Source: Amphiscolops sp. MND2022 (taxonomy: Eukaryota). Taken from it: a stretch of DNA of 64,000 nt. Of the stretch, positions 17,601 through 54,532 are shown in pieces (position 1 is the stretch's first letter; every line of letters begins with the position of its first letter). The position numbers and the translations under genes were made by a program. Location: the NCBI GenBank assembly GCA_964187785.1, contig OZ076409.1, positions 44,146,001-44,210,000 on the forward strand. Direction: 5' to 3'. The notes below the pieces were generated by a model. The model searched no databases, had not been told where the DNA came from, and worked only from the letters and a program-made list of their open reading frames with translations.

Positions 17601-19508
17601 CTACTTGAACAAGTGGATCGAAATCAGCTCCATGACTGTACGCAGAGCAGGAGCTGGAATTGCTGTTTACGGCGGTCGCATCTTCGCTGCCGGTTCGCAT
17701 AATTTTGTATGATTAATTCGTCTGCTGGTAACTTTCTGCAAGTGAAACGTCTGGTACTTCTATCTAGCATGCAAAATTCATTGATCGAAGTATACATTAT
17801 TGAGCTAGTTTTCAATTGAATGCCCGGTTTGTTTCCAGGCGGCTTTGACGATAATGCCCCTCTGAAGTGCGTGGAATGCTATGACCCTGAGACCAACTCC
17901 TGGACCTCTCTGTCCCCTATGTTGTCCAGTAGAGGCGGGGTCGGACTCGCTTGTCTGGCAGGAAAGTTGTATGCCGTTGGGGGCCACGATGGAAGCAATT
18001 ACCTTGACACTGTTGAAACTTATGACCCGTTGAGAGACGTGTAAGTGGAAACTGTCATTGCAATACTTCAATGATGAAATTAGTTTTCAATTTGATTTCA
18101 TGATCCCAAAATCAGGAATGATGAAAATCATGATTGTTTTGAGAAAATTCAAACGAGAAAATCCAATTTCCGAAAAAAAATCACGATCGGATTTAGGAAT
18201 GGGATTCACTCAAAAACTTCAAGTGTATAACATCAAAACTATGGTGTAAAAATGCGAATGAACTGTAAAGTTTGTGTTTCGGAGTTATAGATTCAAAATT
18301 TTGGAACAAAATAACAGATGGAAGGCTTTCTCCGACCACAATCGATTTCGGTGATCGCTATGAATCCATCCAAAGGATGAAAACTTGCTCCGTTTTATGC
18401 GGTCGATGAAATGCATGAATATAGAGATAATGCGCGTTTTTAGTCGGCCTTTTAGGAGAAAAAGCACGACTCTTACAATAGCTAGTTTTTTTCGTCAGTT
18501 CAACGCGATCAGTTTTTTCTGCACTGTGCACTTTTACCATAAGTACTTAGTACTCGTTTTTGAACGCATCCAAAGCCTCTAACATGAAATACAAAACCAT
18601 TCCAAAGCAGAAGGGTCCCCCTTTCCACCATTTTTCGGCACATAGAGTTCCCTTTTTTCGGCTTTGCGAAACGTTTTTCCTAAAAATGTTTTAAATGTCT
18701 CCAAAGTGCCCCTTTCAATTTTTTGATATTTTGCAGCAGAATGGATGTTGAGAAATCACAAAGGGTCCCCCTTATAAATTTGTTTCGCCAAGTATTGTTT
18801 CTCCAAAAAACGTGAATCTAACAAAAATGTTAGAAAATGTGTTAGGGCGAATACATTTAGCGACGGTTAACGGCATGACCTCGTTTTTCCGGAGTCATTT
18901 TTCGGTTAATTTTATCAGCTAACTTATGCCGGGCCATTTTGTCTAGGGCTTTGCCGATTGGTGAAAGTTGCTCCCAATAATGCTAAAAGTTTCTTTTGAG
19001 TCCGAAATCCAAATTGTTGATAGCATCGCTCGGAATCTCATATTGATGTCCTTCGGCAACTAACTTTTTGGGATTTGATTTACCTTCGGAAATTGTTAAA
19101 ATGTATTTATTGCGAGAAGTTATTTGGAATTAGTAGAATGTTTTAGAAATTTATTTACAAGTCTTTCGTAGTTGCAGAATAGTGAGCCCCAAAGGCCTTT
19201 CATAGTGATCCTACCTTTCGAAAAAGTTCCGTATCACATAATTGGTTTCCCAAAATACCAAATAAGTCAACTTTAGGCTTAGAGCCATTCGTTATAGTTA
19301 ATTAAACCAGTTTGTGTTTGAAACCTTTTTTGTGTTTTATCCACGTCCTTAGTTGTTGATGGTAAGTATCGTGTGCTGTTTCAGGTGGGAGCCAAGCAGT
19401 GATATAAATGTTCCTCGAGCAGGAGCTGGCGTTGTTGCCGTCAACTGTCTGGTGTCCCGACTACAGGAAACTACGCACAAAGTGGCAAATGTACAAAGCT
19501 ATGTGTGA
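8695..19508 (+). CDS. KLHL8: Kelch-like protein 8 (BTB-BACK-6xKelch), ~714 aa; join(8695..8918,10276..10480,10647..10759,10954..11193,12050..12187,12475..12788,13193..13336,13659..13770,14550..14718,17533..17692,17839..18040,19385..19508)
   Basis: All 11 introns are GT-AG with compatible phases. [55 protein letters not shown]. Kelch repeats in KLHL8 order: [58 protein letters not shown]. Confidence 0.9.
13864..14346 (+). mobile_element. Repeat family B, full-length copy in KLHL8 intron 8
   Basis: Head AAACAAGCCGGGACCGGCCCAAGTCGGCGCCATATCTAAGGCTCAAAAA; tail TAGTCGACTC...AGCGCCGACTAAAAAA. Subterminal AGTCGGCGC is inverted as GCGCCGACT at the far end; A/T runs at both ends; no TSD. Confidence 0.8.
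14734..16760 (-). mobile_element. Decayed hAT-type DNA transposon with BED zinc-finger remnant (KLHL8 intron 9)
   Basis: Inverted ends TGGGGGTA(T)GCCCGT at 14748 and ACGGGCTACCCCCA ending 16753; multiple ACGGGC subterminal repeats; candidate TSD TATACACT (14726-14733 and 16761-16768). ORF 14925-15209 has BED motif [14 protein letters not shown]...[14 protein letters not shown]. Confidence 0.7.
15320..16482 (-). mobile_element. 5'-truncated, frameshifted non-LTR retrotransposon (LINE) RT fragment nested in the hAT element
   Basis: [32 protein letters not shown] and [12 protein letters not shown] across ORFs 16264-16476, 16128-16316 and 15660-16055. 22-bp tandem duplication (16439-16482) at the truncation point. 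3' boundary approximate. Confidence 0.85.
16982..17346. mobile_element. hAT MITE
   Basis: TIR CAGTGTTGG / CCAACACTG; perfect 8-bp TSD GCTGTGTC (16974-16981 and 17347-17354); repeated GATTTAAAT subterminal motifs. Confidence 0.9.
18436..18775 (-). mobile_element. Repeat family B fragment (KLHL8 intron 11)
   Basis: Tail TTTTTAGTCGGCC...GCACGACT; body homologous to ~59190-59520. Confidence 0.65.
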
Positions 19509-32383: not shown

Positions 32384-32870
32384 TTTTTAGTCGGCACTTT
32401 TCTAGGGAAAAGTGCCCGACACTTACAGTGGCTAGTTTTTTTTCTTTTTTTTTCGTCAGACTACAATCTCACTCTGATTGCGCCACTTTTCTTACAATCG
32501 AAACTACTAAAACTACTACCAAAAGGCCAAGCCCGGTCAGCGGAAATTAGTGCAAAATGGTCCTCCCTTTCATTTTTTACTATTTTAACGTAACCTACAA
32601 AACCGGACGTGCCTAAAGGGTTCCCCCTTTGTATTTTTTTGGGCACTGTGCGACTTTTTTTCGAAAAATTTTTTATTGTCTCAAAAGGATCCCCCTTCGA
32701 GTTTTTTCATATTTTGCAACAGAATGAATATATGTTAATAAAGCTCAAAGGGTCCCCCTTTTTACGTTTTTTGGCACTATGCGACGGTTTCTGGAAGAAG
32801 AAAAATTCAAAGATTCCAAGTTTTTTTCCAAGTTAGATATAGCGCCGACTTTAGACGTTTCCGTCTTGTT
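32384..32870 (-). mobile_element. Repeat family B copy inserted in a T run of Gypsy-1 RT
   Basis: Removing it rejoins SSPIF|ALSKPS (the SPIFAxRKP RT motif); no TSD. Tail hairpin GCACTTTTC-TAGG-GAAAAGTGC. Confidence 0.85.
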
Positions 32871-33044
32871 GCCCTTAGCAAGCCTTCAGCAAAACAACGT
32901 TTGTCAGTTGATCTTCGTCGAATGAAGTATATTTTTAAAGACGTTTGTGACAATCATCAGTAGCCTATCGCCACTTTGGCTGATGTCAATGCCCATCTAG
33001 ATAGGAAAACGTTTTTCGCGAAGTTAGATTGTAGTCAAGCCTAT

Positions 33045-33577
33045 CATCACAATGATCGCGCAGTAATTATTAGTTCACTTAGCACAGTGGATCAGTCTTT
33101 GCCTTCGAACTGGTCTGCGCGAGTTCGAATCTGCGACAGTGCTCTTTTTTAGTTTCTTTGTCTATTTATTCTTTCACCTTCAATTTGATCAATCACTTTG
33201 CACGACAGCAATTACATTGCTCATTTGATGTACAATATTTACCACCCATTGCTCACTATTGTAAACGTTGTTTTTACATACATGTAAACAACCAGTTGAG
33301 ACCTTTTTGTTGCCCCTTTGGCTTTAAATGCCTAATTTGCTGGTTAACAACCTGCTAACAACCAGTTCCCCACTATTGTCTCTAAACTCACTCATTCATA
33401 TTCATACCGTTACCGTGATAAGAAATCGTCATAAAACGTTATCAATCTTAGTCTTCTTGTTTGAGAACAAGACCTCAATCTTTAGCTTGAACTCTATCTT
33501 TGAGTTCCCTCAATCTATCTAGTTTGAACTCTATCTTTGAGTTTCTCCGTATTAGCTTGAGAGCTACCCCCAAAACA
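33045..33577 (+). repeat. BEL-1 5' LTR (5'-clipped)
   Basis: Matches 37520-38052. Confidence 0.95.
33073..33150 (+). ncRNA. Putative tRNA-derived Pol III unit in BEL-1 5' LTR (second copy at 37548-37625)
   Basis: A box TAGCACAGTGG at 33080-33090, B box GAGTTCGAATC at 33121-33131 at tRNA-like spacing, T6 terminator at 33145-33150. Cloverleaf stems are degenerate. Confidence 0.5.
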
Positions 33578-33578
33578 T

Positions 33579-33596
33579 TGGTGACCTCGACGTGAT
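33579..33596 (+). promoter_or_regulatory. BEL-1 primer-binding site, tRNA-Trp
   Basis: TGGTGACCTCGACGTGAT, one mismatch from the canonical Trp PBS TGGTGACCCCGACGTGAT. Confidence 0.85.
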
Positions 33597-36500
33597 GTCA
33601 ACAGCAGATGCTCCAGGAGGTTCAGACGGCTCTGGTGGTGTGCAGAAGTTGGCTCAATTGAAGCGATCAAGAGGGGCTCATCGTGGTGTCCTCACAAGAC
33701 GGGCTACAGCAATCCGGCAAGCCGGTGGAGCACTCGAGGATGTGCAAGCCACATTGGAGTTCCTGATCGACCGTCGAAAGATGCTGACAGAGTTGGATTC
33801 ACAGATTCAACAACTCATTGAAGAAGACGATGAGCTAGACGCTGATGTGGATGAAGCTGCAGATGTGTTCCTGGCAGCAGAAAGGGCAGTGAAGTGGTGT
33901 CAGGCCAGGATCAAGGAGTTGCAGCCTTCAAGCCCAAGCGCCGCAGCGGCACCATCCTGTGGTAGCCTGACTACGAAACTTCCCAAGCTGACTCTTCCTT
34001 CATTCAGCGGCGAGTATACGCAGTGGGTCTCCTTCTGGGACCAATTTACAACATTGGTTGACAGCAAACGTGACATGACCAATGTTGAGAAGCTATCTTA
34101 CCTCAAGCTGGCACTGAAGGGTGATGCAGCTCAGATAGTTTCATCTTTGTTGGTCACTGATACCAATTACGATATCGCCAAGCGTAAGTTAGAGGAGCAC
34201 TACAACAACAAGCGATCAATCGTGAAGGCGCACTTGGCGGCAATTCATGCCCTACCAGCCATCAAGAAGGAGTCAAGTGTCGAGCTGCGCAAGTTACTGG
34301 AGTCGACCAATGAACATGTGCAAGCACTAGAAGCCTTAGGGCTTCCTGTCGATCAATGGGATGCAATACTTGTGTACTGGCTGCTGGAGAAACTTGATGC
34401 TGTGTCGAGGAAGCAATTTGAATTGGCTCATCCTGGCACAGATGTGTTAACATTCAAGGAGTTAACTACATTCATGGATAGACGAAGCCGTGCATTGGAA
34501 TCAAGCGGCGACCAGCATGAGGCTTCTGTCCCCAAGACGACGCCTAAGAAGGTGCTTCAAGAAGCATACTCCTCAACTGTTGAGCACTCAACAAGCTGTC
34601 GGATGAAAGAATGCAATGGGTCTCACTCAATTTCTCAGTGTGATCGCTACAAGCAGTTGGGCACACGTGAGAGAAAGGCAGTGGTGAGGAAGCTCAAACT
34701 GTGCATGAATTGTCTGGGGCGGCATTTCGTGGCTGATTGTCCATCGAAATTCAGCTGCCGCACTTGCAACGGAAGACATCATACATCACTAAACTTCGAT
34801 CGTTCAGTCGAGCAGCAAAGTGGCGTGACAAGTGGTGCAACATTCAGCGGTCCTTCTGTGCTTCTGTCAACAGCAATGGTTGGCATTGATGATGCAGCGG
34901 GAAAGACAATGATGTTTCGAGCCTTGCTGGACTCAGGTTCTCAAACATCCTTCATCACAGCAGATGCAGCATCGAAACTCAACATCGCCCGTTCAACAGT
35001 TGATGTGAAGATCTCAGGGATTGGTGGACGGCAACAAGCAGCAAAGGAGTCAGTCAATCTCGTGATTGGTCCTCAAAAATTGCCAGTAACAGCACTAGTG
35101 CTGAACTCAATTGCAGGTAATATACCCTCTCAATTCATTAATTTGAAACAATTGAAATCAATGAAAAGTGTAGCATTAGCTGACGAAAACTTCCATCAAC
35201 CTGGCCCCGTTCAATTGTTGTTGGGCGCGGATGTGTACGAGGATCTCTTTCTGGACGAAAGGCGGAAGGCTCATGGGCTTCACTATCGCAAGTCTATCTT
35301 CGGCTGGGTGGTCACTGGAGTGTTGTCCCAAGTGCGTGCCCACCAATGTCAATCATTCCATGTTGCAGTGGAACTGGATCTTGCTCGGTTCTGGGAAGTT
35401 GAAGAGATTCCTCGAGTGAAGCTGATGTCCAAAGAAAATCGTCAATGTGCGGAACATTACGATACGACGACCTATGTGGCAGATGACGGCCGCATCACAG
35501 TTCATCTTCCTTTCAAGACTGAGGCACGTCCCTCGAACAACTTTCAAACAGCCAAGCAGAGATTGTTCGCTTTGGAACGAAAGCTCAAGGATCACGGTGA
35601 TGTGAAGCAGCAGTATCGTGACTTCATCAAGGAATTTCTAGACATGGGTCACTTGGAAGAAGCTCGTCAGACTCCAGGGTTGTGTTACTACTTACCCCAT
35701 CACTGTGTGTTCAAAGATAGTACAACAACAAAGCTTCGTGTCGTGTTCGATGCTAGCAGCAAGTCCCCAAATAGCTATTCTCTCAACGATTGCTTACTGC
35801 TTGGACCTCGCTTACAAGACGATGTGTTCGACATCCTCATTCGCTTTCGCCTACACCAATATGCCTTGTCGGCAGATGTGGCAAAGATGTATCGGCAAGT
35901 GGCCTTAGACGAATCAGATCGTGACTTCCACCGAATTCTGTGGCGTGATTTCTTGACGGACGAAATCCGAGAACTGCGCATGACCCGTGTGACGTACGGT
36001 GTTGCCAGTTCCTCCTACCATTCAACCCAAGCACTTCAACAGAGTGGCAAAACAAACGGATCCAACCCCAACACAGTGAATGTGATTCTCAATGACTTCT
36101 GGGTTGATGATCTACTTAGTGGTGCTGATACACTAGAGGAAGCATGCCTGCTTCAAGACGATCTGATTGAAACCCTCAACAAGAATTGTATCCCACTACG
36201 CAAGTGGAGCAGCAATGAACCCCAATTGGTCACTCGTCTTCCGAAAGATCTTCAGGAAGCTGGTAAGGCCTATGAAATCAACGACAAAACCCATCAAATC
36301 AAAACACTTGGACTGACGTGGCACCCTCTAGAGGATCACTTTGTGTACGCATGTAGTACTCCAGTTCTCGTAGTAGCCAAGATCATCATTCAGTCGTGTT
36401 GGAAGCTGGATCTTGAGTGGAACGATACAGTCCCAGACGATGTGTCACGAGCATACACAAACTGGAAAGATGGCATGGGCTCGCTCTCACAACTCAAGAT

Positions 36501-37191
36501 ACCCAGGAAGGTGCTACCAACCCACTTGTACGATGAAGCCTCTTTGCAAGTCTTCTGTGATGCTTCCGAAAAGGCCTACGGTGCTTGTGTTTATCTGGTG
36601 TCAATCAAAGATGACGTTATATCTTCAACCCTCATCTCCTCCAAATGCAAGGTGGCGCCGATCAAACCATCAACTCTCCCTCGTCTCGAGCTCCTAGCAA
36701 TACACACTGGTGCCAAACTTGCAACAGCGGTCAAGGGGGCACTATCAAAATCAAAGCACGCACTGAACATCTCAGTGTTGTACTCAGACTCAACGATCGC
36801 ACTCTCCTGGATCAAAGCGGATCCCTCTCGATGGCACACATTTGTCTCCAACCGTGTCTCTCAAATTCAGTCAATGTTGCCAACAACTGAATTTCTTCAC
36901 GTGCCATCAGAAGAGAACCCAGCAGATCTGTGCTCATGCGGATTGCTAGCAACGCAGTTGGTGGCACAACAGAAATTCTGGTTTCAAGGGCCATCGTGGT
37001 TGGGATCATCCTTTCCTGATCAACCTCAGACTCTCCTCACAAAGGAGGAAGCACGCCAAGAAGTCAAATCCTTGACAGTGTTAACCTCACACAGTAATTC
37101 GTTAGTAGACTTGGACAATTTCAATTCACTAGTGAAATTGCTAAGAACTCTATGCATTTGCAAGGTAGCATTCAAGAAAGAGGAGGTTTAG
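33595..37191 (+). CDS. BEL/Pao Gag-protease-RT-RNase H polyprotein (no integrase)
   Basis: Gag KLPKLTLPSFSGEYTQWVSFWDQF (DUF1759-type) and three Cys/His knuckles; protease ALLDSGSQ; RT YLPHH, KLRVVFDAS, ADVAKMYRQV, FWVDD; RNase H VFCDASEKAYG, LPRLEL, SDSTIAL, ENPAD. Confidence 0.9.
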   Translation: MSTADAPGGSDGSGGVQKLAQLKRSRGAHRGVLTRRATAIRQAGGALEDVQATLEFLIDRRKMLTELDSQIQQLIEEDDELDADVDEAADVFLAAERAVKWCQARIKELQPSSPSAAAAPSCGSLTTKLPKLTLPSFSGEYTQWVSFWDQFTTLVDSKRDMTNVEKLSYLKLALKGDAAQIVSSLLVTDTNYDIAKRKLEEHYNNKRSIVKAHLAAIHALPAIKKESSVELRKLLESTNEHVQALEALGLPVDQWDAILVYWLLEKLDAVSRKQFELAHPGTDVLTFKELTTFMDRRSRALESSGDQHEASVPKTTPKKVLQEAYSSTVEHSTSCRMKECNGSHSISQCDRYKQLGTRERKAVVRKLKLCMNCLGRHFVADCPSKFSCRTCNGRHHTSLNFDRSVEQQSGVTSGATFSGPSVLLSTAMVGIDDAAGKTMMFRALLDSGSQTSFITADAASKLNIARSTVDVKISGIGGRQQAAKESVNLVIGPQKLPVTALVLNSIAGNIPSQFINLKQLKSMKSVALADENFHQPGPVQLLLGADVYEDLFLDERRKAHGLHYRKSIFGWVVTGVLSQVRAHQCQSFHVAVELDLARFWEVEEIPRVKLMSKENRQCAEHYDTTTYVADDGRITVHLPFKTEARPSNNFQTAKQRLFALERKLKDHGDVKQQYRDFIKEFLDMGHLEEARQTPGLCYYLPHHCVFKDSTTTKLRVVFDASSKSPNSYSLNDCLLLGPRLQDDVFDILIRFRLHQYALSADVAKMYRQVALDESDRDFHRILWRDFLTDEIRELRMTRVTYGVASSSYHSTQALQQSGKTNGSNPNTVNVILNDFWVDDLLSGADTLEEACLLQDDLIETLNKNCIPLRKWSSNEPQLVTRLPKDLQEAGKAYEINDKTHQIKTLGLTWHPLEDHFVYACSTPVLVVAKIIIQSCWKLDLEWNDTVPDDVSRAYTNWKDGMGSLSQLKIPRKVLPTHLYDEASLQVFCDASEKAYGACVYLVSIKDDVISSTLISSKCKVAPIKPSTLPRLELLAIHTGAKLATAVKGALSKSKHALNISVLYSDSTIALSWIKADPSRWHTFVSNRVSQIQSMLPTTEFLHVPSEENPADLCSCGLLATQLVAQQKFWFQGPSWLGSSFPDQPQTLLTKEEARQEVKSLTVLTSHSNSLVDLDNFNSLVKLLRTLCICKVAFKKEEV

Positions 37192-37292: not shown

Positions 37293-37374
37293 ACGATGAT
37301 GGTGCAGTGGTGATTTCAATATTCCCTCATCAGAAGGTCTGGAGTTCGAATCCCCAAAACACAAAATTTATTTT
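37293..37374 (+). ncRNA. Second tRNA-like Pol III unit in the BEL-1 3' internal region
   Basis: A box TGGTGCAGTGG at 37300-37310; CTCAT...GAAGGTC-TG-GAGTTCGAATCCC resembles the 3' half of tRNA-Met; TTTT at 37371. Confidence 0.45.
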
Positions 37375-37506
37375 GTCTTCATTAAACTCAAATTCATGAC
37401 ATTTACTATTTGTATTATTATCGAGTGGTAGCATATTCCTTCAAACTGTATTAGCACGAGTGCTAACCATATACTCAATGAAGCTGATACTTCATGGCCG
37501 GCGGGA

Positions 37507-38052
37507 TGTTGGCGCATGACATCACAATGATCGCGCAGTAATTATTAGTCCACTTAGCACAGTGGATCAGTCTTTGCCTTCGAACTGGTCTGCGCGAGTT
37601 CGAATCTGCGACAGTGCTCTTTTTTAGTTTCTTTGTGTATTTATTCTTTCACCTTTAATTTGATCAATCACTTTGCTTGTCAGCAATTACATTGCTCATT
37701 TGATGTACAATATTTACCACCCATTGCTCACTATTGTAAACGTTGTTTTTACATACATGTAAACAACCAGTTGAGACCTTTTTGTTGCCCCTTTGGCTTT
37801 AAATGCCTAATTTGCTGGTTAACAACCTGCTAACAACCAGTTCCCCACTATTGTCTCTAAACTCACTCATTCATATTCATACCGTTACCGTGATAAGAAA
37901 TCGTCAATAAACGTTATCAATCTTAGTCTTCTTGTTTGAGAACAAGACCTCAATCTTTAGCTTGAACTCTATCTTTGAGTTCCCTCAATCTATCTAGTTT
38001 GAACTCTATCTTTGAGTTTCTCCGTATTAGCTTGAGAGCTACCCCCAAAACA
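37507..38052 (+). repeat. BEL-1 3' LTR (546 bp)
   Basis: TGTTGG...AAAACA; AATAAA at 37906-37911. Confidence 0.95.
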
Positions 38053-39787
38053 GCAAAGTTAGATTGTAGTCAAGCCTATCATGTGCCTCAGATGGCTGAC
38101 CCGTTATCTGTCCAACTACTCTCTTTGAACTTCCTTTCACGAATCTTTGCGTACTTACGCCTTGCACAAGGCCTTAGTTGTTCAATAAGAGCTTTAAGTT
38201 CGTTTATGCGAAAGTATTTTGTCCCTGCCAAGTTGATGACCAGCCTCTCCAATATGGAGACGTTCCGGGCAACGCTGCCGCTACATTTGAACACATTGTG
38301 GAAAAACTGCATCCTGAAAAAACAGCTCTGAATTTCACGTCCTCCAAGTGTGAGTTTGGTCTTAAGGAAATGACTTTCCTTGGCAGCACCATCTCAACCG
38401 AAGGAATGTCTCCGAATAAGACGGAAGTCTCTGACTTCAATTCGACCCTCAAATTTCTGAAAACTCCAAAACGGTTACACGTTCCATGGGCTTCATCAAA
38501 TATTTTCTGTCTTTCAATCCGAAATTGTGGAAAAACTCCTTGCTTTTTAAACAACTCCTCAGAAACGACACGGAATTTAAAATCACGGACGAACATCATA
38601 AATGCAATGCTGCCATCAAGAAAGATTTGGAACCGTTTTTGAATGCGTAACCATTATCACTCGTTCGCTTCATCTTGAATGCGCAGCCTGTCTGCTTAAC
38701 GATAATCAAGGTTTTCCGAGTCCTAAGGGTGGCATTGTAGGTCCTGAAGGACCGACAAGTTTTCTCTTTTTCTGTTGAAAACCACTACCGTTTTTCGGCA
38801 CTGTGTGACGTCGTTCGAAAAAAACATCATTTAATCAAACGTAAGCCCTTAATTTCAAAAAAAATTATTGCCTAGGAAAAAGCGTTGGCGAACCCAATGG
38901 GTCTTCTTTTGGGTTTTTCGGGAGCATATAAAAAGATTTTGTCATTTTTTGGTTTCGAAGACTCTTAACGGTGTTAAGACTTAAATCGGCCAGTCACATT
39001 GTGCCGAAAAAAAAAACAAAAGATGGCCGTCTATGCTCGCAAAACGCTTTGTTTCTGCTATTGATCAAGAAGGCATTTCGGTTTTAAAAACTTAGTATAG
39101 TAGCGACAAAACCTCCGTGGTGTACCCTTTGGTCTCCCCTCTACTTTTGCAAGTTTGCAAGCATAGAAGAGTTTGGCTTAGTGAGAGACTCAAACCCACA
39201 CACTAATCTTGCAATGAGAGTATAGACACTTCAGAAAACCTTATGGAAATCTGTCACTTCGCTGCTCTTTAAAAAAAGCTATTAATAAAGTCAGTTCTTT
39301 TCGAAAAGCGCCCACTTAGAAACGACACTCGACGAGGTGAAATTCTTTTGGTTCCCGAACCAGCGCTCTATCCACTAGGTCATCTTGAAGGATCTTGGTT
39401 CGAACTCACGACGTTCTGGTTTTAAAGCATGGACTCTTATCACCGAATCATACGGCGGCTGCTGCAGGAGTGTCTTGCGGAAATTGAACAAAAAGTGGAC
39501 CATTCAATATCGTCATGTGACAAGAAAGAACAAGACGGGAACGTTTAAAGTCGGCGCAACTCCTGAAGCTCAAAAAGCGCATACTTTTGAAATACGACCC
39601 GGAAGGTGATATGCAAAACTCCAAAAATCGTTTCGAAACACCCCAAGGGTGCCTTTCGTGCCCGGTAAACGCCTCAGAAGTTCAGATATAGCGTGCTGGG
39701 ACAAATGGGGGCAATTGTCTCCGAATTTCCGCCTCCTCCTTAGTAAAAGGCTTTATAGTTCAGATTTAACGTCAAACATTTGGATAT

Positions 39788-41848: not shown

Positions 41849-42029
41849 CTTTATTCTTTGATTTCTGATGTGATTTTCAATATAGATTAGGCTATCACTT
41901 CCGGAAATGCTGATTTTAGTTAGGATTTCAGGTGGAGAAAGGACCTGAACTTGACGTAGCCTAAATGACTTAGCGGAAATGTGTGAAATTGTTATATTCT
42001 GATCATTTTTGTGTTAGTTTCCATTTTAG

Positions 42030-42439
42030 GTCTTTTAGAATCTGGTTGCTGTTTTCCTTTCAAGTCACCGTTGATTTTCACTAAAGTAGTTTGCGAGTTC
42101 ATTAGTACCAACTTTTTGATTTTGATGATTACCCATGGCCCCTTCTGGAATTCATTGTTCTTTAATTACAACACAGACCTGGAGCGGGCATGGGTTTTGT
42201 CCAATTCTACAGTTTCGAAACTCACTAACTTTCAATTTCATGCAGTCAGATTCCAAGGATTCTAGTGACAGCTCGAAACATTCTTCCTCGGCAGCAGTCG
42301 CTTCCACTGACGAATGCGATATCTCAAATATTATTCTCGGGTTATCTGGCTATTCCTAGGCAGCAGCTCTCTTGATCTGCCCTTCTTCTTCGCTCGTCGA
42401 CGATATGTCGATCAGTTCGTATATGTGTACATTTTTCAT
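42030..42439 (-). pseudogene. Decayed acidic ORF of unknown function
   Basis: MKNVHIYELIDISSTSEEEGQIKRAAA*E*PDNPRIIFEISHSSVEATAAEEECFELSLESLESDC...; several in-frame stops. Confidence 0.35.
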
Positions 42440-42790
42440 TGTTTTCTTCTTTTAGCTGCTGTTTTTTGCGTTCGATTGTTTAACAATGAATTTAGGATTT
42501 TTCCAGGATTGACCGGATATGTTCCTTTTTTCGGACTGGTTAATATTCTCTTTTAGTCCGTTCTCAATCCTTGTGGTTGACGTTTTGCCGACGTCGCGTT
42601 TTTATTGGCCGCAGGATTGATTTATTCCTGATAGCCGCAAATTTCAGTTTTTTGCTGACGTCAATATTCGACAGCGTTCTGCTATCGTCAATTCTATTGA
42701 TTAATTCTTTCTTTCGATCACTGTCGACGTCATAGTGGCGTCGAATCAGTGTTGGGCTGTTTTAACCCTGTCTTTGTTTTCTCTTTGCAG

Positions 42791-45700
42791 AGTGCTGTTC
42801 AGAAATTGACTTCCCCTCGCCGAGTAGATCCTGGCATGCTGAGTGGCAACGAGACTCAGTTCTTTTCCGAGGCTGACGCACGCGAGAGTGACGCCGATCC
42901 TGCTAGCGTTCAACCTGCTGTTGGTAAGTTCATCGTTCCCCAATCCATTTAACTTTTGTGGATAAATCTTCTCTGCAAACAGGACTTTTTGCGTTTTGTA
43001 CTTCCACAACTTAGTTTTCTTGACGCGTCTTTATCCGGAATGTGTTTTCAGTGCCTGCCTGAGAGCTTTCTACAGCTTCTGTCAAACCTCTCGTTGTCCC
43101 TCTTGCTGTGACTGTAATTCCTGCTGTTCTTGTTCCCGACACGGGTGCGTCTGCTTCTGCAGTGACCGCTGCTTCAAAAGAAGATTCAGATGTACCTCTT
43201 TCTGAGTTTCTTCCAAGCCAGATCCTGTTTGTGTTGTCCCGACTCACGGAAGTGAGGTCATCTCCCCCCCCGCAAGATGGGGCTGTGGAGGAGCCTCAGA
43301 TGGGTACCCCTGTGATAGGAGCTGATGGGAGTTGAACCCAATCTCCCCGATTGACCCGGTTCTTGCCTGATTTTGCCAAGACATTCGGCAGGTTGAAGTC
43401 TTCCCAGACTCCAAATCAAGGTGAGTGGTTTCCCCTTGTGGTTATTGTTTTTGTTTTGAATTTTGTTATTGGCGTTGTGACTCCTTTAGTTACAGTAAGC
43501 GAGTATTGCTTAAACGTTTTGTTGTTGTTGTTGTTGTTGTAATGTATCGTCTGTTCATGTTTGCAGTAGCGTCACTCAATCCTGATGTGTCTGCTGAGAC
43601 GACGTCTTTTAGGTAAGCGGCGGCGTACCGTTAAACTGTAAACTGCTCCTCTATCTCAAGCTTCCTAAATTGAGTGTACTGACGAAGAAAGGGCAGGTAC
43701 TGTGGCTGCGGCGTATACCTCAGAGCAAGCTCCCTTATTCGGGGAGGTTGTTGCCTCCGAGTTTGAGACGCGGACAGTTGAACCTTTCGTTACAAGTTGG
43801 TATGCATTATTTGGTTTCTTTGTTATTTGGTTAGGTAGACATATTATGGCGGTGTGGCATCGGGTTGGGTCGCTAATTGTATTTTGAACCTAACTTTGGT
43901 ATTTCTGGTATTTCTTCAAAGAATTGGTGACGCGTCTAGAAGCAAGTCTTGAAAGTGCTAGTCCCTCACGTCGGCGAATACGGGCACAAAGTTCGTGGAA
44001 TCGACTCCGTCACGACATGGTTCAGGGCCACCCTGTGTTCGTGCTCTTTGTGAGTGGACCCAGTTCTGGGACGGACACCGCTTTTTTCTGCACTATCTTT
44101 CAGGGAGACATATCGATTGCGACCAAAGGGGTGCACGAGTTTGGACCTCACTTTTCAAGCGACAAGCATCTGCTGTTGGATGTTGCTCATCGTGTGCCTC
44201 GAGGATTGCTGGTTTACAACGAACTGTTGGATCCAATGGAGTTGAGCTATGCACAGACGCTCGATTTCTTGACCCGGCCATTTAGGGAGAAGCCTGAAGG
44301 CTTCAGTTTCCCTGAGGATTTGTTGCCGTCATGTACCCGAAAAACTCGAGTGTGCCTTTGATGACTATAGTGAACTGCCTGGCCGAGTTGCTCCGAAATG
44401 GTGGGAGCTACTTTCTGCTGCAAAAGCTGTGGGGCCATATCCGGGCGCTTCTGTGTTCAAAGAGTCCACTGTACAGTTTGACGTGGAGTCGTGAAGATTC
44501 TTTGGTAAGTTTGGTTATTTGTGTTGATCGTGTAATTTAACAGTAACGGTTTTTTTGTTTAGGTGTTTTTGGTGGCTTTCCATCCCATTCATTATTTGTG
44601 TATTTCAGTCGCTGCTGTGCCAAGCTCCGTTTTCGCGTGTCCTCCGTTTGTCCCTCGCATTGGTGAGTTCAAGTCTGACAGCATGGTTTTTGTGGATGAG
44701 TCTGATGGGAAGGAATACGTTGTGTGGACTTGGGACAAGAATACCTTGCTGGAAACACGTGTGGATGTGCAGACTCTCGGCAAGAGTGTTCCCTTGGCAG
44801 AATTGGATTCGATGGCTTGCGTTTTCGGCGGTTTTCCGGGCGGTCAATTGCCTTTGTCTGTGGAGGGGGGTAGTACCTCTTCGTTGCCGGTGCTAACCGA
44901 CAATCGTGAGGATGGTCACTATTTTATCCTGAGCCGCAATTTCTCCGAGGACGTGTTGCTCAATTTTTACCATCAAGCCCATCAGGAAGTGCTGGGAATA
45001 ATGGAAGTGATACTGTGATTGACTATTTGATGCTCCGAAAAAGAGGGGCCATTCAAGAGCCGTGGCTCTAAGATGCAACTTTTCTGCGTCGTTGGGTTGT
45101 CGTTTGTCATGTGTCCTTCAGTGATCATCGTGATACTGCTTTCGAAGTGATTACTATGTGAAACTCTGTGAGGGAGTCGTTCGTTAGAATGGCCCCCAAC
45201 ACATAAAGAATGAGGCAGATATGGTTAGTGCCATTGTTGCTTTGTTTCTTTCAATCGTTTTGTTTTTCCCTTGAAAGTTATGGGGCGGGTGTTGGGTCAA
45301 TTGGCGTACTGGTGTGAGGTTTTGTAGTGTGTTTTAGATACGGGGTACGGACAGTCCTGTGTATTGTGACAATAGAAACCGTTTGCCGCTAGGACTTCTC
45401 GTCCATGTGCTTGATCTTTGTAAATGGACGTCGTCTTGCTGTCGCATGTTGGTAGTTTGAGGTGGGTCTTGTATGGGCTTGTTGTTCAGATCGCTGCACC
45501 TTTAAGAGACGGCTGTCTGGACGTGTGGATTACAGCTTCCATTGTTATATGGAGACTTGCCAGTTTGCATACTGTTTACTGTCCCGTACACGTCAGTTAT
45601 CTGATTTGCCCGATATGTCCGATTGGAAGGCCTGTATGGACACCTCAAACACTGTTGTGTTTAAGACGATAGACACTGCTGATTTTTTGTTAAGTCATGA

Positions 45701-46614
45701 ATTTGGTCAGGAGCTGCTGCGTGGTACGTTATGTGAGATGCAGGAAATTTGGAATCAATTCAGAGAGTTCATGGACCGTTTGGTCGACGTCTTCCTGTAG
45801 TCTAACATTGTGTCTTCAGATTTCCTGCAAGGCATATATCCTTTCTGTCTTAAACTACTGTTTGAGGGCAATGACCGTTACATCTTCCGCATCTTCAGCA
45901 AATTAGTACGGGTCCTTGAGAATTGCGGTTTTGACCAGTGAAGAATTAATGTCCGGGGTTGAGGAAGTTGTAACTTTTGTTGTGGACACTCGGTTACGCC
46001 CTATTGCCTCCGAGAATAGTGCTGAAAGAAAAGCTGACGTGATGAGGAACCTCCTTGCGGAATATAGTTTTTTGTGGTTTTAATGTGGATTTTGCTTTGA
46101 ATGGTTGTGTTGTGTCTGCCTCTGTGATTTCGTCTTGTTTGCGGGTGCAGAGCTACGCTGTTCTCCGGATTTCAAGTTGGGTGCTTTTTTCTCGAATCAC
46201 ACTATGGACTGTGTTCACAATGCCATAGCTGGTGCTCGAGAGTTTATGTACGCTGATAATGGTTTTGATTCTTCGAGTCGTATATGTGGTGGTGATCGTG
46301 CTGCTTTTGTTCAACGTTATGTTGATTTACTTGACGCTCATATGTCACGACAGGAAACTGTGTCCTACCAGCGATTTCGAGTCGCCAATCAACGTGTGCC
46401 TAGCAATGTTTCTGGTGTTGGTAGCAGAACTTCACCCTCTGTGCCTTCCTGTGGTCGTACTGCGCGGGGCGGTTCAGCTGTTGTCGGGGGTAGTTCCTCA
46501 AAGACGTCTGCAAAACGGCAATCGCAGCAGTCGACCAGGTCCACAAGAAGTTTGGTTTTGCTGAACGATGTGAAGAAGAATCCAAAGAAAGGGTCAACCG
46601 GCGCTTCAAGTTGA
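42791..46614 (+). pseudogene. Decayed multi-exon gene with C2H2/BED-like finger, possibly hAT-transposase-derived
   Basis: Acceptors at 42790, 43051, 43566, 44608 and ~45338; donors GTAAGT 42924, GTGAGT 43421, GTAAGT 44505, GTTAGT ~45224. Peptides AFFCTIFQGDISIATKGVHEFGPHFSSDKH and MVFVDESDGKEYVVWTW; basic Ser-rich C-terminus. Stops and frameshifts throughout. Confidence 0.55.
43519..43540 (+). repeat. (GTT)n microsatellite
   Basis: About 7 units. Confidence 0.9.
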
Positions 46615-49248
46615 GTTGAAAGAAATGATAACTTGCTTGATTACCATGGTGAACTTGTTTTTGATTTAGTATTTGTTCATTTGTAGTCTGTTATTTTTTT
46701 CCTGTCCGTATGGCCAGTTGATTGTGTTGTGGCTTATCAAAAATATTAGTGGCTCCTTCGTCAGGTGGTATGGATTCAAGAGATAAGAAGGAATGAAGGG
46801 TCTTAGTATTCTCTTAATTGAAAACTCGTCAAATCGGTTCCGTCTGGACTCTTGATATTGTCTTTTTCTCAGTGAGTCGAAGTCATAGCGTCAAGTCGTC
46901 TGAAGTCACGATTATCGTTAGGTTTAGGATTAAGTTCGTATGAAAGGATTGTCTTATGTGATTTGTTTATTGGTATTGGTTTCTGTTTCTTCGACCGTTA
47001 GTGTGACCTTTGATGTTTCTCTGTCGAGTGCAATTTGCGTTGCTTGTTCTTTTAGCAATAGAACTTCTTCCTCTGTTTCGATTGTTTCTTCTGGTAGGAA
47101 GAAGAGTTGTTCTTGATCAGCTACGTAGATTGACCTGAATTGTTCCGATCGTAATATCTTCTCTCAGTTTGAGTTTAACATTTTCTTTCATGTTTAATTG
47201 TTTTCTTGGGAAAACATGTGCAGCTGTCCGTCCGGCGTCCCAGCAACTTGCATTATGTGAAAAATGAATTTTAGGACATATTCACACGCAATCCATAATG
47301 TGGGAAGAATTGCTTTCGTTTGTAAGAAACGTGTGACTGACTTTTTGTATATTGCTAGGAAGTCTTTGCAGTAGATTGACATTTTTAGTTGCGCTGGGGA
47401 GAACACTTTTGATCCAAAAGTTACTGGTGCAAAGGTCTTTTCTTGGACTTTAGCTTCTTCTCATCGTTTTCATCTATCATTAGGACGTACCCCGAGGCGC
47501 GGTGGTTGGCATCCGTCATTAGGATGTGTGGCTGTTCAGTGAATGACTGTCTGATGGCCGATCCGCACACTTCCGCTAGCGCTGCGCTGATAGCTTTTTA
47601 GTTGTTAAGAAATTCTTCTGTGATCTTGATTTGTTTGTCTGCTTCTAGGAGTTCGTAGAAACCAGAAATGTTTTTCTGATAGGCGCGAGATGTAAATGCA
47701 GTAGTAATCATCTGAGATGAGCACATTCATTTTCCGTAGGTCGACGAGTAGACGCAATTTGCCAATTGGTTTCCGATGTGCAAAAATCGGGCTTGCATAT
47801 TTTGAAAATGGTAGAGTTGTTATAATGCCGTAACGATGCATAAACGCTAGTTCTATTTTCTTTCAAGTTTATTGGTACAGGTAGGCTTTCGGTGTATACT
47901 GGACTTTCGTCCTTCGGAGTTAATTTTATTTTACGAAGCTGTTATTAATCCCGATGCCCAGTCGGTAGCGGGCGAAGATGTCCGTGTATTCGACTATTGT
48001 TTGTTCGAGTAGTTCCTTCTCTTTGCCTTCTATCTGGGACCCTTCCCATTGGAACATGTCGAGCAACATTTTCCTTGATTCTGCAGTTTTGGTTGGGTGT
48101 AATTCTTCTTTTTTGATGAGTTCACGAAATTCATTCAATATTCGTTGTTGTATTGGCGTATGTTTCTCCCCAATGCCTGAATTTTACGGTGCGGGAAACC
48201 AGAAACTTTCTTCGTTTTCGTCATCTCACTTGATTTCATGAGTTCGTTGACATAAATATGTGTATCATCAGGTTCTTGAAGTATTTTTAGGGCGGCGGCG
48301 GCAATGGGTCGCATCTGTTTCGTATTGTTTGGTTTGAGGATTTGGAGTTCCGGTACTTTGGTATGGTTTTCGATGGTATACGGAAATTCTGTCAGATTGG
48401 CCATTCTGATATTCATTTGTTTATTGTGTGCTGTTGCCATCGCTGGTGCAACCATTATGCTTGCCGTTTCGTCGAATTTTGGTTGTGGTTGTACGTCGTT
48501 GGTTGGTTCCTGTGACGTCGTTTGTGTTGGTTGTGGCGACTATTGCTTTGGAGGTCGTCGTTTGTTGAGGGGTTCGTATTTGATGCTCTTCGGATAGTAT
48601 TTGGAGCTGTTTGAGGTTACAATTCTTCATTTCATCTGTCATTGCTAACGTAATTCGGAAGTCAGGGAAGTTGATCGTTTCGTTAGCTGTGTCGATCACC
48701 GCCTGATGGTTCCTCATGAAGTTTAGGCCTATTATGCGAAAGGACGTTTTCGAGCGGATGACAAACGTGACCGTGAATATGTAGGTTCCAAATTTGAATT
48801 GGATGCCGCTATGGCAACGGGTTGTTCCAATTGGGCGTTTGCTTATTCGATCCTGAAAAGCGGTTGTGGATCTTTAGTTTGCTAATGACAAATATTCCTC
48901 AGTTCATTTTGATCATGTTGTAGTCTGACCACGACATTGCATCGATGAATGCTCCTGAGTCTACTAACCTATGCATGGTTATTTCACCAAGTTTGAGGGA
49001 CAGGTAGAGCATTCGTCTACGTTTTTTGAGTACATTTAAGGATTGTAGGGTATACAAGCGTCGCCATCTTTGTCAGTTATGTATTCTTTGATGGAATTCA
49101 ACGAGACGGGGAAATCATCTGGGAATATAGATTCTTTTGTTGTATTGGAGCCGTTAGTATCTTCCTTGGGTGGTTGAGACGTGAGTTGTTCGTTGTGGGC
49201 GTTTTCGGTTTGATCCACAGGAGGAGCCAATGGTTGTGCTTTGAAGGT

Positions 49249-52200
49249 GAGGTCATCTACCACGAAGTCACGCAGGATCACTGGGCTTGCTAGCGGATGA
49301 TGATGATCGTGGGCAGCAGATTGAAGAGCCTTGACAGCTTGGTGAGCAGAAGATCGAATGCCGAACGTGACACGGGTCATGCGCCAGACCTCAATTGGTT
49401 CATCAGGCTGATCGCGCCATAGAAGTCGATGGTAGTCCCTGCTGCTTCGCTTCAAACACACTTGACGGTACATCTTCTCCACATCAGCACAGAGAGCTAT
49501 TGTGTGAAAGCGAAACCTAAGCAAAATATCAGTTAGATTGTCTTGAAGAGTAGGACCAGTCATAAGTGAGGCGTTGAGGGACCACCCAGATGAAGATTTT
49601 GCGGAGCCGTCGAAGACCACGCGAAGCTTGTGTGTTGAACTATCCTTCATCACATTGTGGTGGGGAAGGTAGAAAACTTGATGATGTGGTTTATCGAGAT
49701 CCTCAGTTGGGACTCGTTCCATGTGACCAGCATCCTTGTATCCATTGATGTAGTCAGCGTAGTCTTGCTTGAGACCAGTAGACTGTAGTCGTTTCTCCAG
49801 TGCCAGAAAGCGTCGCTTCGCCTGATTGAAGCTTTCACCAATTGGAGGTGCATCTGGGTTGAAGGGTAGTTCCACTTCGTAGCACCCATCAGCTGTCCTA
49901 GACGTCGTCTGAGTGAAGAAGTTCTCGCATTGCTGCTTTTCAGGGGTGAATTGCTTGGATCCAGCGCCAGGCACCTCCTCGATTTCCCAGAAGCGAGTCA
50001 GAAGCTGATCGACAGAGGAGACATCAGTTGATGTTGAGTGTAGAACGATGTGAAGTGATTGCTCAGAGCTAGAGTCAGAAGCTGTAGATGAGTGGCCTGA
50101 TTGAACCAGCTTAGGGTTGAGTGTACCGCTGAGAACCCAACCGCACATGGTTTCCCTGGCATAAAGCTTGGGTTGAAGCTGAAACTTGTTAGAAAGTATA
50201 ATTGATTCATAAAGATCAATACCAATGAGGATATCGATTGGACCAGGAGTGTGGAACATGGGATCGGCCATTTGCACACCATCTAATTGAGTGAGTTCAG
50301 CAGCATTGATGGGCTGTGAAGGTAGATCATAGGTGATTGTTTTGAGAACTAGAGCAGTTGTAGTTAGCAGTTGCTCCTTGTAGGGGCTGTAGAGGTCCAA
50401 GGTAACCACTGCTGAGGGACGAGGCATGCGCGTGCGCGCTATCCCAGTGTAGGTCGCTGCTGTCCGCTTTGTGGGTAGACCGAGCCGCTGGGCTGCCTGT
50501 GTGGTCATGACGTTCACCGTTGAGCCAGAATCAAGAAGTGCTCTGAGATTGACCCATTTATCATGCCTGTCACGAGCCATTATCTGAATAGTACTGAGGA
50601 TACCTTGAGTCGTTACAATGGGTGTAGAGTCATTGACATGCCCATTGCGTTCCAGTGGCTGGTCATTCTTTTGTAGCAGGCTATGATGTTTCCCACTGCA
50701 CGTACGACACGTCTTGTTGCTTGGGCAGGACTTCGGACGATGGCCAGAAGAGAGACAGTTGAAGCACAAACCCAGATCCCGAGCCTTGTCTGACCTCTGA
50801 ACAGTTGTCATCTCATTGAAGGCTGAGCACTTGTAAATCGGATGTCCAGAAGTGTTGCAGACTGCACAGGGTTTCGATTGGGCGCCAAGATAGGTTTGGT
50901 TGGTTGATTGTGGTTTCGTCTGGGTTTTGGAACTCTCAGATGTGGCCTTGAGCGTAGTTGCCTCTAGAGCTCGAACACGAGTTTCTAGAAAGGTAAGAAG
51001 ATCATCAAGTTTTTGCGGCTCAGAAATACTTACCTCGTTGGGTGCATGCAACTCCCAATGCTTCCTGGTTTCTTGATCCAGCTTTTCGGCAATGAGAAAG
51101 ACCAGTAGATGATCTTCATTGACGCCTAAATTGCGCAGTGCCACAATGTGTTCCATCATCGTTGTTTGCAACTTTCTCAAACCAGCTGCGTCCTCCGTCT
51201 TGAGGTAGGGTAGGTGTGAAGGGACTGGAAACGTGCTCGCATGATGCATCGCTTGTTCTCGAAACGAGCTTGAAGAAGTGCACGAGCTGCAGCGTAGTTG
51301 TCATCGGTGATTGAGAGCTCTGAGATCACCTTGGCATCCTCCCCCCGCAGTGCACGCTTCAAGTAGTTGAGCTTCTGCGAGTCGACCAGAGAAGGTTAGG
51401 CGTCAACGGAGGCATTGAACTGATCCCAGAATGAAGTCCATTCGGCATACTTACCGTCGAACAGAGGCAGGTCGAGTTTGGGGAGTTTCACACGAGTAGC
51501 TGATCCAATGACGGCAGCTGGAGAAGACACGGTAGGACCACGTATTTCACCTCCGCTAGCTTGTCCTGAAGCTCCTCCATGAGACACAAGCAAGAGTCCT
51601 GTTCCTCTGAGCGTTCATCATCGGGCAAGAGACTGAGCAGTTGTTGATCCAACCGAGACAAAAGAGCAATTTTGTCAACGAACCTCTCGTAGCAGCCACG
51701 AAGTTGTTGAACGGCAGTCAAGTTGTCGGTAGCATCTTGGGCCTGTTGAAGCAGTTCGTCTATGCGCTTCATGAGCTTTGTCGCGACCCCTCGTTGAGTG
51801 GAGCGGGATTGTTTCACTTTGGTGAGATCATCACCAGCAGTGGTATTTTCCATCTTTGAAGTGTCGTCACTGTTTCCACCAGTGCTTCTAGTTGCAGGCA
51901 TTGGGGAAGGGAAAGTAGTTCGAATGAATCGACAAAGGGTTCCAGAAGATCAGAGTTAAATCGTGAAGGAATAGTCAGAGGAGAGACTGATTCTGTAGTG
52001 AGTTCGCGGCACCATATGTTTAGTGATCAACTAAACTGTTGAACTAAGATGAAAACTTATTGTTGTAATAATGAATTGAAGGTGCTTGCTGCAGTGGTGG
52101 TTTTACAAAGAGTGAGAACGTTCAGGAATACAGTTAAAGAATCGAGTGTTTACATACAACACCAGTCAAATATGAGTTCTTCAAACTTCGAGTATGTAAA

Positions 52201-52306
52201 CAGACATATCAATCAATATGTGCACTTTTTGTATCATGTGAGTGTCAATCAAATAAAAATGTTTGTAAACAACAAATGTCAGTCAAACTAATTGTATCAG
52301 TGAACA
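49249..52306 (-). mobile_element. BEL/Pao element 'BEL-2', 3'-truncated in RT, inserted in Gypsy-2
   Basis: 290-bp LTR at 52017-52306 with imperfect TGTT(C/T)A(C/G)TGAT inverted ends. PBS TGGTGCCGCGAACTC (tRNA-His-like) at ~52000-52014. Frameshifted gag from 51901 (KLPKLDLPLFDGKYAEWTSFWDQF), ALLDSGS, YLPHH, KLRVVFDGS; ends at FVVDDL. Confidence 0.9.
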
Positions 52307-53137
52307 GGGAGGATTGGTCGTATAAGTGTGGTCTATCCCAGTGGTCTCATCTGTAGTCTTTGTCGAAGACTTAGACCCGTTCTTGGTTTGACTCTGGGAG
52401 TGCCTCTTTAGTAGTCAAGTATTGGTCTTCGGATTCAGTAATCAATTGAGGGTAATCCCTTTATTGTTCATTTTTGGTATTGTGTTTCATTTTGGCTGCG
52501 ACTTTTTGTCGTCCTTGCCAGTCCTCTGTTGGAGTTCCATTTCAATTTGTCGTCGAGCTTTGAGTGTATTCGATAGGGGATCTTCTACTGAGTACACTCT
52601 CGGGTCTACTGTTTCCCCGAAACACAGGCGCAGCGTGACTATTTTTTTGTTCTCGTTGATTGTCCTGTTTGCCGTTGGTTGGACGGGATTATCGATCCTT
52701 TGCTCTTGTTGTTGGTGATGCCTAAATCGTGGATCGTTGGCAGCGCAGCATTGGCTCCATTCCAACAATCTTCTGTTTTTGTGGGGTTTGCCGCATGTGT
52801 TGCATTTGAGCGTGTTGTCTTCGCGTTCTCTGGTTTGTCCGTTTTTTTTTCGAGTTTGATGCCACCTATCTCTCCTCATTTTCCTGCGTTCTGCTTAAAA
52901 GTGACCAAATTTATTACAATAAGAACAGTACCCCTTTTTGGTATTTTGGGTTCTGTCCTCTGACGGTTTTGCCTCGACCTGAAGCTGAGTGGTCTCAATT
53001 TTATTTAGGGGATCCAGAGTTTACGAAGACGAGAGTCACTTCATCTGGGTTTCCTAGGCCGTTGAGTCACTTTTTTTTCTCCAAATGGAGTACTCTGTCG
53101 TTATATGGTTTATCTTCCAGGTGCGCTCTGTTAAGTA

Positions 53138-53309
53138 CCGTGGATACCGGATATGTTCAACGTCAGGGAAATGACATTGGTGTTTCTCAAAATCGAAACT
53201 TCTTTTATCCGGGTATTAAAAGGAATGGAAATGCCAGTCCAGACCAAGATACGCCTTGACTATATGCGGATATTTCCTATAAGCGATTTTTTTGTATCCC
53301 GATCAACTG
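53138..53309. mobile_element. Tc1/mariner(pogo)-type MITE in Gypsy-2 gag
   Basis: TA on both sides; imperfect TIRs CCGTGGATACCGGATA / TATCCCGATCAACTG. Excision restores gag IKKI|LNRAHLEDKPYND. Confidence 0.8.
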
Positions 53310-54332: not shown

Positions 54333-54532
54333 NNNNNNNNNNNNNNNNNNNNNNNNNNNNNNNNNNNNNNNNNNNNNNNNNNNNNNNNNNNNNNNNNNNN
54401 NNNNNNNNNNNNNNNNNNNNNNNNNNNNNNNNNNNNNNNNNNNNNNNNNNNNNNNNNNNNNNNNNNNNNNNNNNNNNNNNNNNNNNNNNNNNNNNNNNNN
54501 NNNNNNNNNNNNNNNNNNNNNNNNNNNNNNNN
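54333..54532. other. Assembly gap (200 N)
   Basis: Run of N. Confidence 1.

Follow-up and report, generated by a model that had tools for sequence, protein, structure and literature searches.

We found that a BEL/Pao retroelement in the window (the whole 64-kb stretch of DNA that was analysed) carries a predicted type 2 RNA polymerase III (Pol III) promoter and terminator within U3 of its long terminal repeat (LTR), an assignment supported by the motifs present, and that a second, different unit of the same kind lies in its 3' untranslated region (UTR). In both units the promoter (A box, B box, spacing and T run) is retained and the tRNA fold is lost. Judging from other copies, both units are native to the family. 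We tentatively favour the reading that two tRNA-derived type 2 Pol III promoters have been kept by the family for an action at the level of the DNA, which would keep the ends of the element open.

The element is 5008 nt long and has the following parts:

33045..33577, plus strand: 5' LTR, in which the first 13 nt of the 3' LTR are missing (525/533 identical to 37520-38052).
33579..33596, plus strand: primer-binding site (PBS) for host tRNA-Trp (17/18 letters, by-eye comparison).
33556..37191, plus strand: gag-protease-RT-RNase H frame, 1211 aa from stop to stop, with DUF1759, Peptidase_A17 and Asp protease.
37496..37506, plus strand: polypurine-tract-like stretch before the 3' LTR, at the presumed position of the polypurine tract (PPT).
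37507..38052, plus strand: 3' LTR, 546 nt, TG...CA, with U3/R/U5 borders placed from motifs only.

The domains are those of BEL/Pao elements (DUF1759, Pao peptidase A17, PR-RT-RH-IN), integrase being absent in this copy: compared with a 1689-aa family member that is 81% identical and has integrase domains, it lacks the integrase part and shows a 26-residue gap. Among the 120 relatives listed, 16 were 80–90% identical, all from ENA assemblies. The LTRs, PBS and PPT likewise agree with the profile of Belpaoviridae, which have LTRs of 0.2–1.2 kb, an 18-nt tRNA PBS and a PPT, although the primer there is tRNA-Arg or -Gly (PMC8742986) and here tRNA-Trp. The reference for the PBS was the tRNA-Trp PBS in Fig. 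S2 of PMC10886601, and the single difference from it permits a G-U pair. Pol II-type motifs of the 3' LTR comprise a TATA-like sequence at 37798, an initiator-like sequence at 37867 and AATAAA at 37906, and the LTR unit would accordingly sit in the upstream end of U3, some 250–320 nt upstream of the Pol II start. Two of the eight differences between the LTRs fall in the poly(A) signal (33432-33433 / 37906-37911), AATAAA being found only in the 3' LTR, and a 37-nt tandem duplication with hairpin-forming arms is located near the LTR 3' end (33473-33543, 37948-38018).

The LTR unit had been recognized in a preliminary description of this DNA as a tRNA-like Pol III transcription unit with an A box and a B box at tRNA spacing, an anticodon-loop-like heptamer and a T6 terminator, lying roughly 40–120 nt into both LTRs. 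Its parts are these:

33080..33090, plus strand: A box of the LTR unit in the 5' LTR, exact match to TRGYNNARYGG.
33103..33109, plus strand: heptamer, read as an anticodon loop in the preliminary description; an arm of an inverted repeat, without an anticodon stem.
33122..33132, plus strand: B box of the LTR unit in the 5' LTR, exact match to RGTTCRANYCY.
33145..33150, plus strand: T6, resembling a Pol III terminator, 12 nt 3' of the B box.
37548..37625, plus strand: LTR unit in the 3' LTR (A box 37555-37565, B box 37597-37607, T6 37620-37625).

Boxes, T6 run and position were all borne out. The stretch spans 33073-33150 in the 5' LTR and lies 42–119 nt from the LTR start in both LTRs, its boxes are exact matches separated by 31 nt, which is tRNA spacing, and the T6 recurs in the second LTR. 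Presence in the second LTR is not independent evidence, because the LTRs are identical at 525 of 533 positions; only one of the eight differences is inside the unit, and there is no signal in them.

For the pair scan, TRGYNNARYGG (with at most one mismatch) and RGTTCRANYCY were sought 25–69 nt apart on both strands of the 64-kb window, using consensus forms with A allowed at the first position of the B box after the sequence had been viewed. The published type 2 consensus, as given in PMC12498455, is TRGYNNARNNG plus GGTTCRANYCY with the boxes 30–60 nt apart, and the B boxes here agree with it at 10 of 11 letters. The scan returned only three pairs, all with exact A boxes and all inside the BEL/Pao element on its sense strand; at these three places the boxes are 30–60 nt apart, and a T run of at least four follows (T6 in both LTRs, T4 in the 3' UTR). 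Exact pairs were absent from dinucleotide-shuffled versions of the LTR (0/5000; 3/5000 when one A-box mismatch was allowed) and of the whole element (0/1000; 9/1000 with one mismatch). A solitary exact B-box match at 6857-6867, without an A box partner, was also seen in the window scan.

The third of these pairs belongs to a unit in the 3' UTR (37300-37374), which was overlooked in the preliminary description and differs in sequence from the LTR unit. It precedes the 3' LTR copy of the LTR unit by about 255 nt:

37300..37310, plus strand: A box of the UTR unit, exact match; the codons of the boxes are unchanged in other copies.
37343..37353, plus strand: B box of the UTR unit, 32 nt after the A box; 4/5 pairs in the T stem.
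37367..37374, plus strand: T-rich run resembling a terminator, with T4 at 37371-37374.

The interiors of the two units are unlike and have no common fold. A weak resemblance between their spacers was matched by 96 of 3000 shuffles. A third, degenerate unit with the same box spacing (37418-37470) was considered and not counted: it was picked post hoc, 50 of 3000 local shuffles reach its score, and that score is under those of the best unrelated tiles of the window. A 14-nt palindrome (about 37452-37465) lies within this candidate.

Neither unit has the acceptor, D, anticodon and T stems of a tRNA gene. With the register set by the boxes, the LTR unit forms 0/5 Watson-Crick pairs (3 G-U) in its anticodon stem, 2/5 in the T stem and at most 2/4 in the D stem, and its acceptor stem reaches 5/7 pairs only with a 2-nt shift. 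Best-register cloverleaves contain 11/21 pairs in the LTR unit and 10/21 in the UTR unit, counts also reached in about 30% of 10000 trials in which the letters outside the boxes were shuffled. By comparison, 18 phage tRNA genes (16 Thr, 2 Gly), collected as a positive control by the exact A+B pattern in viral contigs and thus having the same two boxes, form 19–20 of 21 pairs. A tRNA search of the LTR had been proposed with the preliminary description; run as ARAGORN plus Rfam, it found no tRNA. ARAGORN called no tRNA genes in the 64-kb window, and at lowered thresholds it never called Arg-TCG and its other calls were inconsistent, while Rfam gave no tRNA or vault RNA match up to an E-value of 10. 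Rfam matches to TB11Cs5H3, snoR53, snoTBR5 and HOLDH were rejected as far under their thresholds. Accordingly, of the tRNA-like Pol III unit originally claimed, the boxes and their spacing stand, whereas the cloverleaf is at chance level and the anticodon reading fails: the heptamer CTTCGAA is present and falls at the anticodon position by spacing (TCG), with no Watson-Crick stem to hold it.

Other structures were no better supported. The LTR unit is predicted to fold into two hairpins, one of about 19 bp with bulges, and its longest perfect stem is 8 bp; an 8-bp inverted repeat joins 33104-33111, in the heptamer region, to 33122-33129, in the B box. No folding z-score (-0.70 and -1.68; +0.72 in the UTR unit) was better than shuffles, and the stable pre-miRNA hairpin ending at a U run that characterizes retroviral miRNA cassettes was not found. 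A vault-like three-way junction drawn by hand was rejected (-14.9 versus -24.8 kcal/mol, with pair probabilities near 0). Antisense matches to the units elsewhere in the element were no longer than 8–10 nt.

Six spurious protein predictions, each from one contig and running through non-coding DNA, gave a view of other copies of the family; they were aligned to the window with frameshifts allowed, so that only amino-acid changes are visible. One of them (P0002) is a polyprotein, 88% identical, that extends from pol into the UTR and ends where the A box starts; three short proteins span the UTR unit, one of them continuing through the PPT into the LTR start; and two (P0245 and P0246) span the LTR unit, one running from the PPT to the LTR end. 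Two of the four matches in the LTR-unit search (P0247, P0248) look like unrelated repetitive proteins and were excluded before counting. Because read-through proteins of other copies contain them, both units appear native to the family. An insertion of a SINE private to this copy, named in the preliminary description as an outcome that would count against the unit, is contradicted by the same proteins, which place the unit in the family LTR. Cluster look-up for five of the read-through proteins gave no further members, and family DNA was not found in viral contigs, in JGI metagenomes (searched with the full-length family protein) or in GTDB contigs (searched with a 26-nt stretch of the unit). 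Among sequencing runs, one was listed (share 0.07) and none of RNA; it yielded 26 short pieces (151 nt in the 8 that were listed) with next to no depth over either LTR unit, and so speaks neither for nor against them.

The conservation of the boxes relative to their flanks, a comparison likewise proposed at the outset, gave a divided answer. Across four copies of the UTR unit, box codons were unchanged in 32/32 cases, compared with 205/236 elsewhere (Fisher p 0.015). Taken singly, the most diverged copy gave 10/10 versus 36/55 for other codons (p 0.023), whereas the remaining three were individually non-significant (p 0.34, 0.79 and 0.85). In the spacer of the UTR unit the most diverged copy has four consecutive changed codons, and another copy lacks 9 nt. 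The LTR unit including its spacer is kept in P0245 (21/21 codons versus 40/55 downstream, p 0.004), apart from the loss of a single base from the heptamer region and another from the T run. In P0246, on the other hand, it is no better kept than the flank (19/26 versus 44/67 codons, p 0.33): the B box is broken, the A box has one change, and codons of the PPT and LTR start are changed too. P0246 may represent a decayed insertion, but it does not support selection. The heptamer region or spacer of the LTR unit has lost 1 nt in both P0245 and P0246. Since the copies behind these counts were picked by similarity, the regions were set once the data had been viewed and frameshifted copies were favoured, we read the counts as a hint of selection on the boxes rather than proof.

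Beyond the family, we compared 79 distant BEL loci from metagenomes, 31–47% identical. An exact A+B pair occurred in 0/79 of these loci, and in 0/79 did the flanks contain a pair on the sense strand whose A box had one mismatch or none (16 looser matches in all), in a set where a long direct repeat was present in only 20/79 and many loci may be without a full LTR. ARAGORN, run on 60 of the 79, found nothing. Minus-strand tRNA-like or SINE-like heads were seen in two loci (L064, about 6600-6690; L075, about 170-265), both antisense and probably outside the elements. As far as seen, then, the Pol III units would be specific to the family.

In the literature searched, with subscription papers and Repbase reports outside it, no BEL/Pao LTR is described as having a Pol III unit: the full text of the ICTV profile (PMC8742986) has none, and a term search of a BEL/Pao survey found neither 'tRNA' nor 'polymerase III' (PMC3118150). 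The absence of a precedent suggested in the preliminary description thus held within BEL/Pao, but not for LTRs in general, precedents being known in Helenus (PMC10886601) and foamy viruses (PMC3993851). According to PMC10886601, 'not a few' of the LTRs in Repbase include a portion of a tRNA, and only miniature terminal-repeat retrotransposons (TRIMs) were retained there; with the others set aside, coding elements with such units probably exist undescribed.

The closest parallels are Helenus TRIMs of fungi, animals and a plant, whose tRNA-derived LTR boxes mostly make no working tRNA (Kojima 2024, PMC10886601). Shared with them are A and B boxes in the LTR, a mostly non-functional tRNA fold, a unit without complementarity to the PBS and, by eye, short T runs that follow the unit, with some extra internal B-box-like motifs in theirs. 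Helenus elements are non-coding and 311–1263 bp long, have Gypsy or Copia partners and are thought to have their genomic RNA made by Pol III, whereas here a 546-nt LTR belongs to a coding BEL/Pao element of more than 5 kb, with one unit at the 5' end of U3 and an extra unit in the 3' UTR. Of the features that define Helenus and other TRIMp3 elements, the element therefore has the tRNA-like LTR sequence (boxes and spacing) and lacks the non-coding size of roughly 0.3–1.3 kb. That autonomous elements must use Pol II is argued in the same paper, in which the word BEL does not occur. The Cassandra TRIMs of plants, also invoked in the preliminary description, likewise have a Pol III promoter and terminators in both LTRs; according to PMC7215508, their promoter is a 5S-derived type 1 promoter and they are non-coding, with Pol III making the element RNA. 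Nearer in organization are the foamy-virus LTR cassettes and the bovine leukaemia virus (BLV) cluster, which are short self-terminating type 2 units in coding, Pol II-transcribed orterviruses (PMC3993851, PMC4992882 and PMC12498455) and lie, as here, within the LTR or as a cluster towards the 3' end (PMC3993851, PMC4992882). Those units belong to retroviruses, fold into long miRNA hairpins and are shown to be expressed, whereas here the host element belongs to Belpaoviridae and there is no significant hairpin.

Self-encoded primers form a separate comparison. BEL elements of the Cer7 type in C. elegans are reported to contain a tRNA-like stretch complementary to their own PBS, which has been proposed as the primer. 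A primer would be concerned there, whereas here neither unit is complementary to the PBS of the element, which fits host tRNA-Trp. The tRNA dimer at the PBS of a Gypsy element, described in PMC3286476, is also a different thing from the LTR unit here.

Known barriers offer a model for an action at the DNA level; an insulator was one of the two roles suggested in the preliminary description, an LTR-encoded small RNA of about 75 nt being the other. tRNA genes and TFIIIC-bound B boxes act as chromatin barriers. These resemble the units here in keeping their boxes without a needed RNA product and in lying at the edge of a domain, and are unlike them in that the known cases are host loci rather than parts of mobile elements. 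In the element, TFIIIC would bind the A and B boxes and recruit TFIIIB and Pol III, which would make short self-terminating transcripts of about 75–90 nt. Once integrated, the element would benefit from open, protein-bound chromatin at either end, which would guard the Pol II promoter of U3 from being overrun by silencing, while the genomic RNA would remain a Pol II product primed by host tRNA-Trp. In BLV, the Pol III cluster is occupied and active and has positive marks while the provirus is silent or latent (PMC4992882). A broader version, in which the LTR unit, bracketing the element, and the 3' UTR unit would be selected Pol III genes forming an accessory layer like that of retroviruses and countering host silencing, in cis by way of TFIIIC-built open chromatin and perhaps also in trans by means of short RNAs, seems to us possible, if doubtful.

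Retention at the level of the promoter is favoured because the boxes are perfect and the stems are at chance level, and this same combination is what makes a neutral history hard to set aside. One or two SINE heads or tRNA fragments captured into an ancestral 3' end, and copied since without benefit, would predict the same look in any one copy, since SINE heads own good boxes and have decayed stems by history; our favoured reading is weakened to that extent, and again because the 79 distant BEL loci do without such units. The restriction to one family, from which the second BEL-type element in the window is also excluded, and the loss of the B box in the decayed P0246 point the same way, and insertion of a SINE into an LTR is the origin proposed for Helenus by Kojima (PMC10886601). 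Against mere passengers stand the two different units, each with both boxes exact followed by a T run, the better retention of UTR-unit box codons than of their neighbours, the fact that neither unit was seen to be surrounded by a SINE body, a tail or a clear target duplication, and the lack of any other copy of a unit in the 64-kb window; we rate such passengers as somewhat unlikely. Less probable again, and in our judgement plainly unlikely, is that the RNA itself is the function, the short Pol III transcripts serving as precursors of trans-acting small RNAs or as decoys for the silencing machinery. The A box, B box and U run in U3 together with a cluster at the 3' end are the retroviral arrangement (PMC3993851, PMC4992882), the LTR unit folds as two hairpins, and the P0246 changes near the A box, as judged from codons, fall in the loop of the first hairpin; retention of the whole LTR unit in P0245 fits an RNA product as well as it fits a promoter. 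The folds, however, are no better than those of shuffles, with no perfect stem beyond 8 bp, no fold common to the two units, no longer antisense match in the element and no Rfam family.

The remaining explanations fare worse. In TRIMp3-type use, Pol III would start in the LTR and produce the genomic RNA, or else the unit would itself serve the element as primer of reverse transcription; this is the role proposed for Cassandra and Helenus (PMC10886601). Helenus LTRs too have short T runs after the unit (by eye), so that a T run alone need not prevent read-through. Here the LTR unit is about 450 nt from the PBS and separated from it by T6 and two T5 runs, because of which Pol III should be unable to make the genomic RNA. 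Unit-PBS pairing is no better than with shuffled PBS sequences (355/500 and 396/500 as good or better), and for both reasons the units would be neither primer nor genomic-RNA promoter. With the length and coding frame of the element, the Pol II-type motifs downstream and the fit of the PBS to host tRNA-Trp, TRIMp3-type use seems largely refuted by the sequence, and we regard it as very improbable. Chance matches to short consensus motifs, in a scan whose B-box pattern was widened to A at its first position after the sequence was seen, are more improbable still, given the shuffles, the two independent units on the same strand of one element and their box spacings of 31 and 32, as in real tRNAs; at this level of testing chance is refuted. 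A working tRNA-Arg(TCG) gene in the LTR, for which only the tRNA-fitting spacing, the position of the heptamer and the shifted acceptor stem speak, has practically no probability, being refuted by the missing stems, by ARAGORN and Rfam, and by the loss of one base from the heptamer region in each of the other two copies.

The explanation given for LTR Pol III units has been that they are promoters of tiny non-coding elements (Cassandra, Helenus). In a coding element with two units this promoter role would not be expected to apply and, if the units are selected, another job is needed, such as chromatin shielding or accessory RNAs as in foamy viruses and BLV. Selected units would make a testable device against silencing in a family of retroelements that has been little studied, and every solo LTR would leave one more TFIIIC site somewhere in the host genome. 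Such an anti-silencing cassette would be the first in Belpaoviridae, as far as the literature was searched, and would mean that LTR Pol III units are not confined to miniature elements needing them as promoters. If the units are passengers, the case would instead illustrate an intermediate step towards a TRIMp3.

The insertion site of this copy is unusual. Integrase-type insertion leaves intact TG...CA ends and a short target duplication. This copy, as distinct from the family, has a 5' LTR short of 13 nt and a 30-nt flank repeat:

33018..33047, plus strand: left copy of the 30-nt flank duplication, its last 3 nt common with the truncated LTR start.
38053..38082, plus strand: right copy of the 30-nt flank duplication, 29/30 identical to the left copy.

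These odd junctions possibly fit either cDNA capture at a break (integrase-independent insertion) or an assembly fault. The interrupted target (32850-33047, 38053-38700) reads, by its motifs, like what we take to be a decayed RT frame of another retroelement, and Pfam gave no RT match on two pieces of this flanking frame. Directly left of the target lies one copy of an abundant dispersed and tandem non-coding repeat family (32384-32870, 13859-14345, 18436-18810, 59175-63585).

Elsewhere in the window, the second BEL-type element is broken, lies on the minus strand (49036-51500, 53277-53816), is 38% identical to the family and contains no exact A/B pair. It sits in a long strand-skewed region (42000-54000), and an assembly gap (run of N) follows at about 54333-54360. 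A near-perfect inverted repeat (5864-6128) has 117-nt arms that are 98% complementary, and an intronless RIOK3 gene (3147-4442) is 42–52% identical to those of named animals of all groups.
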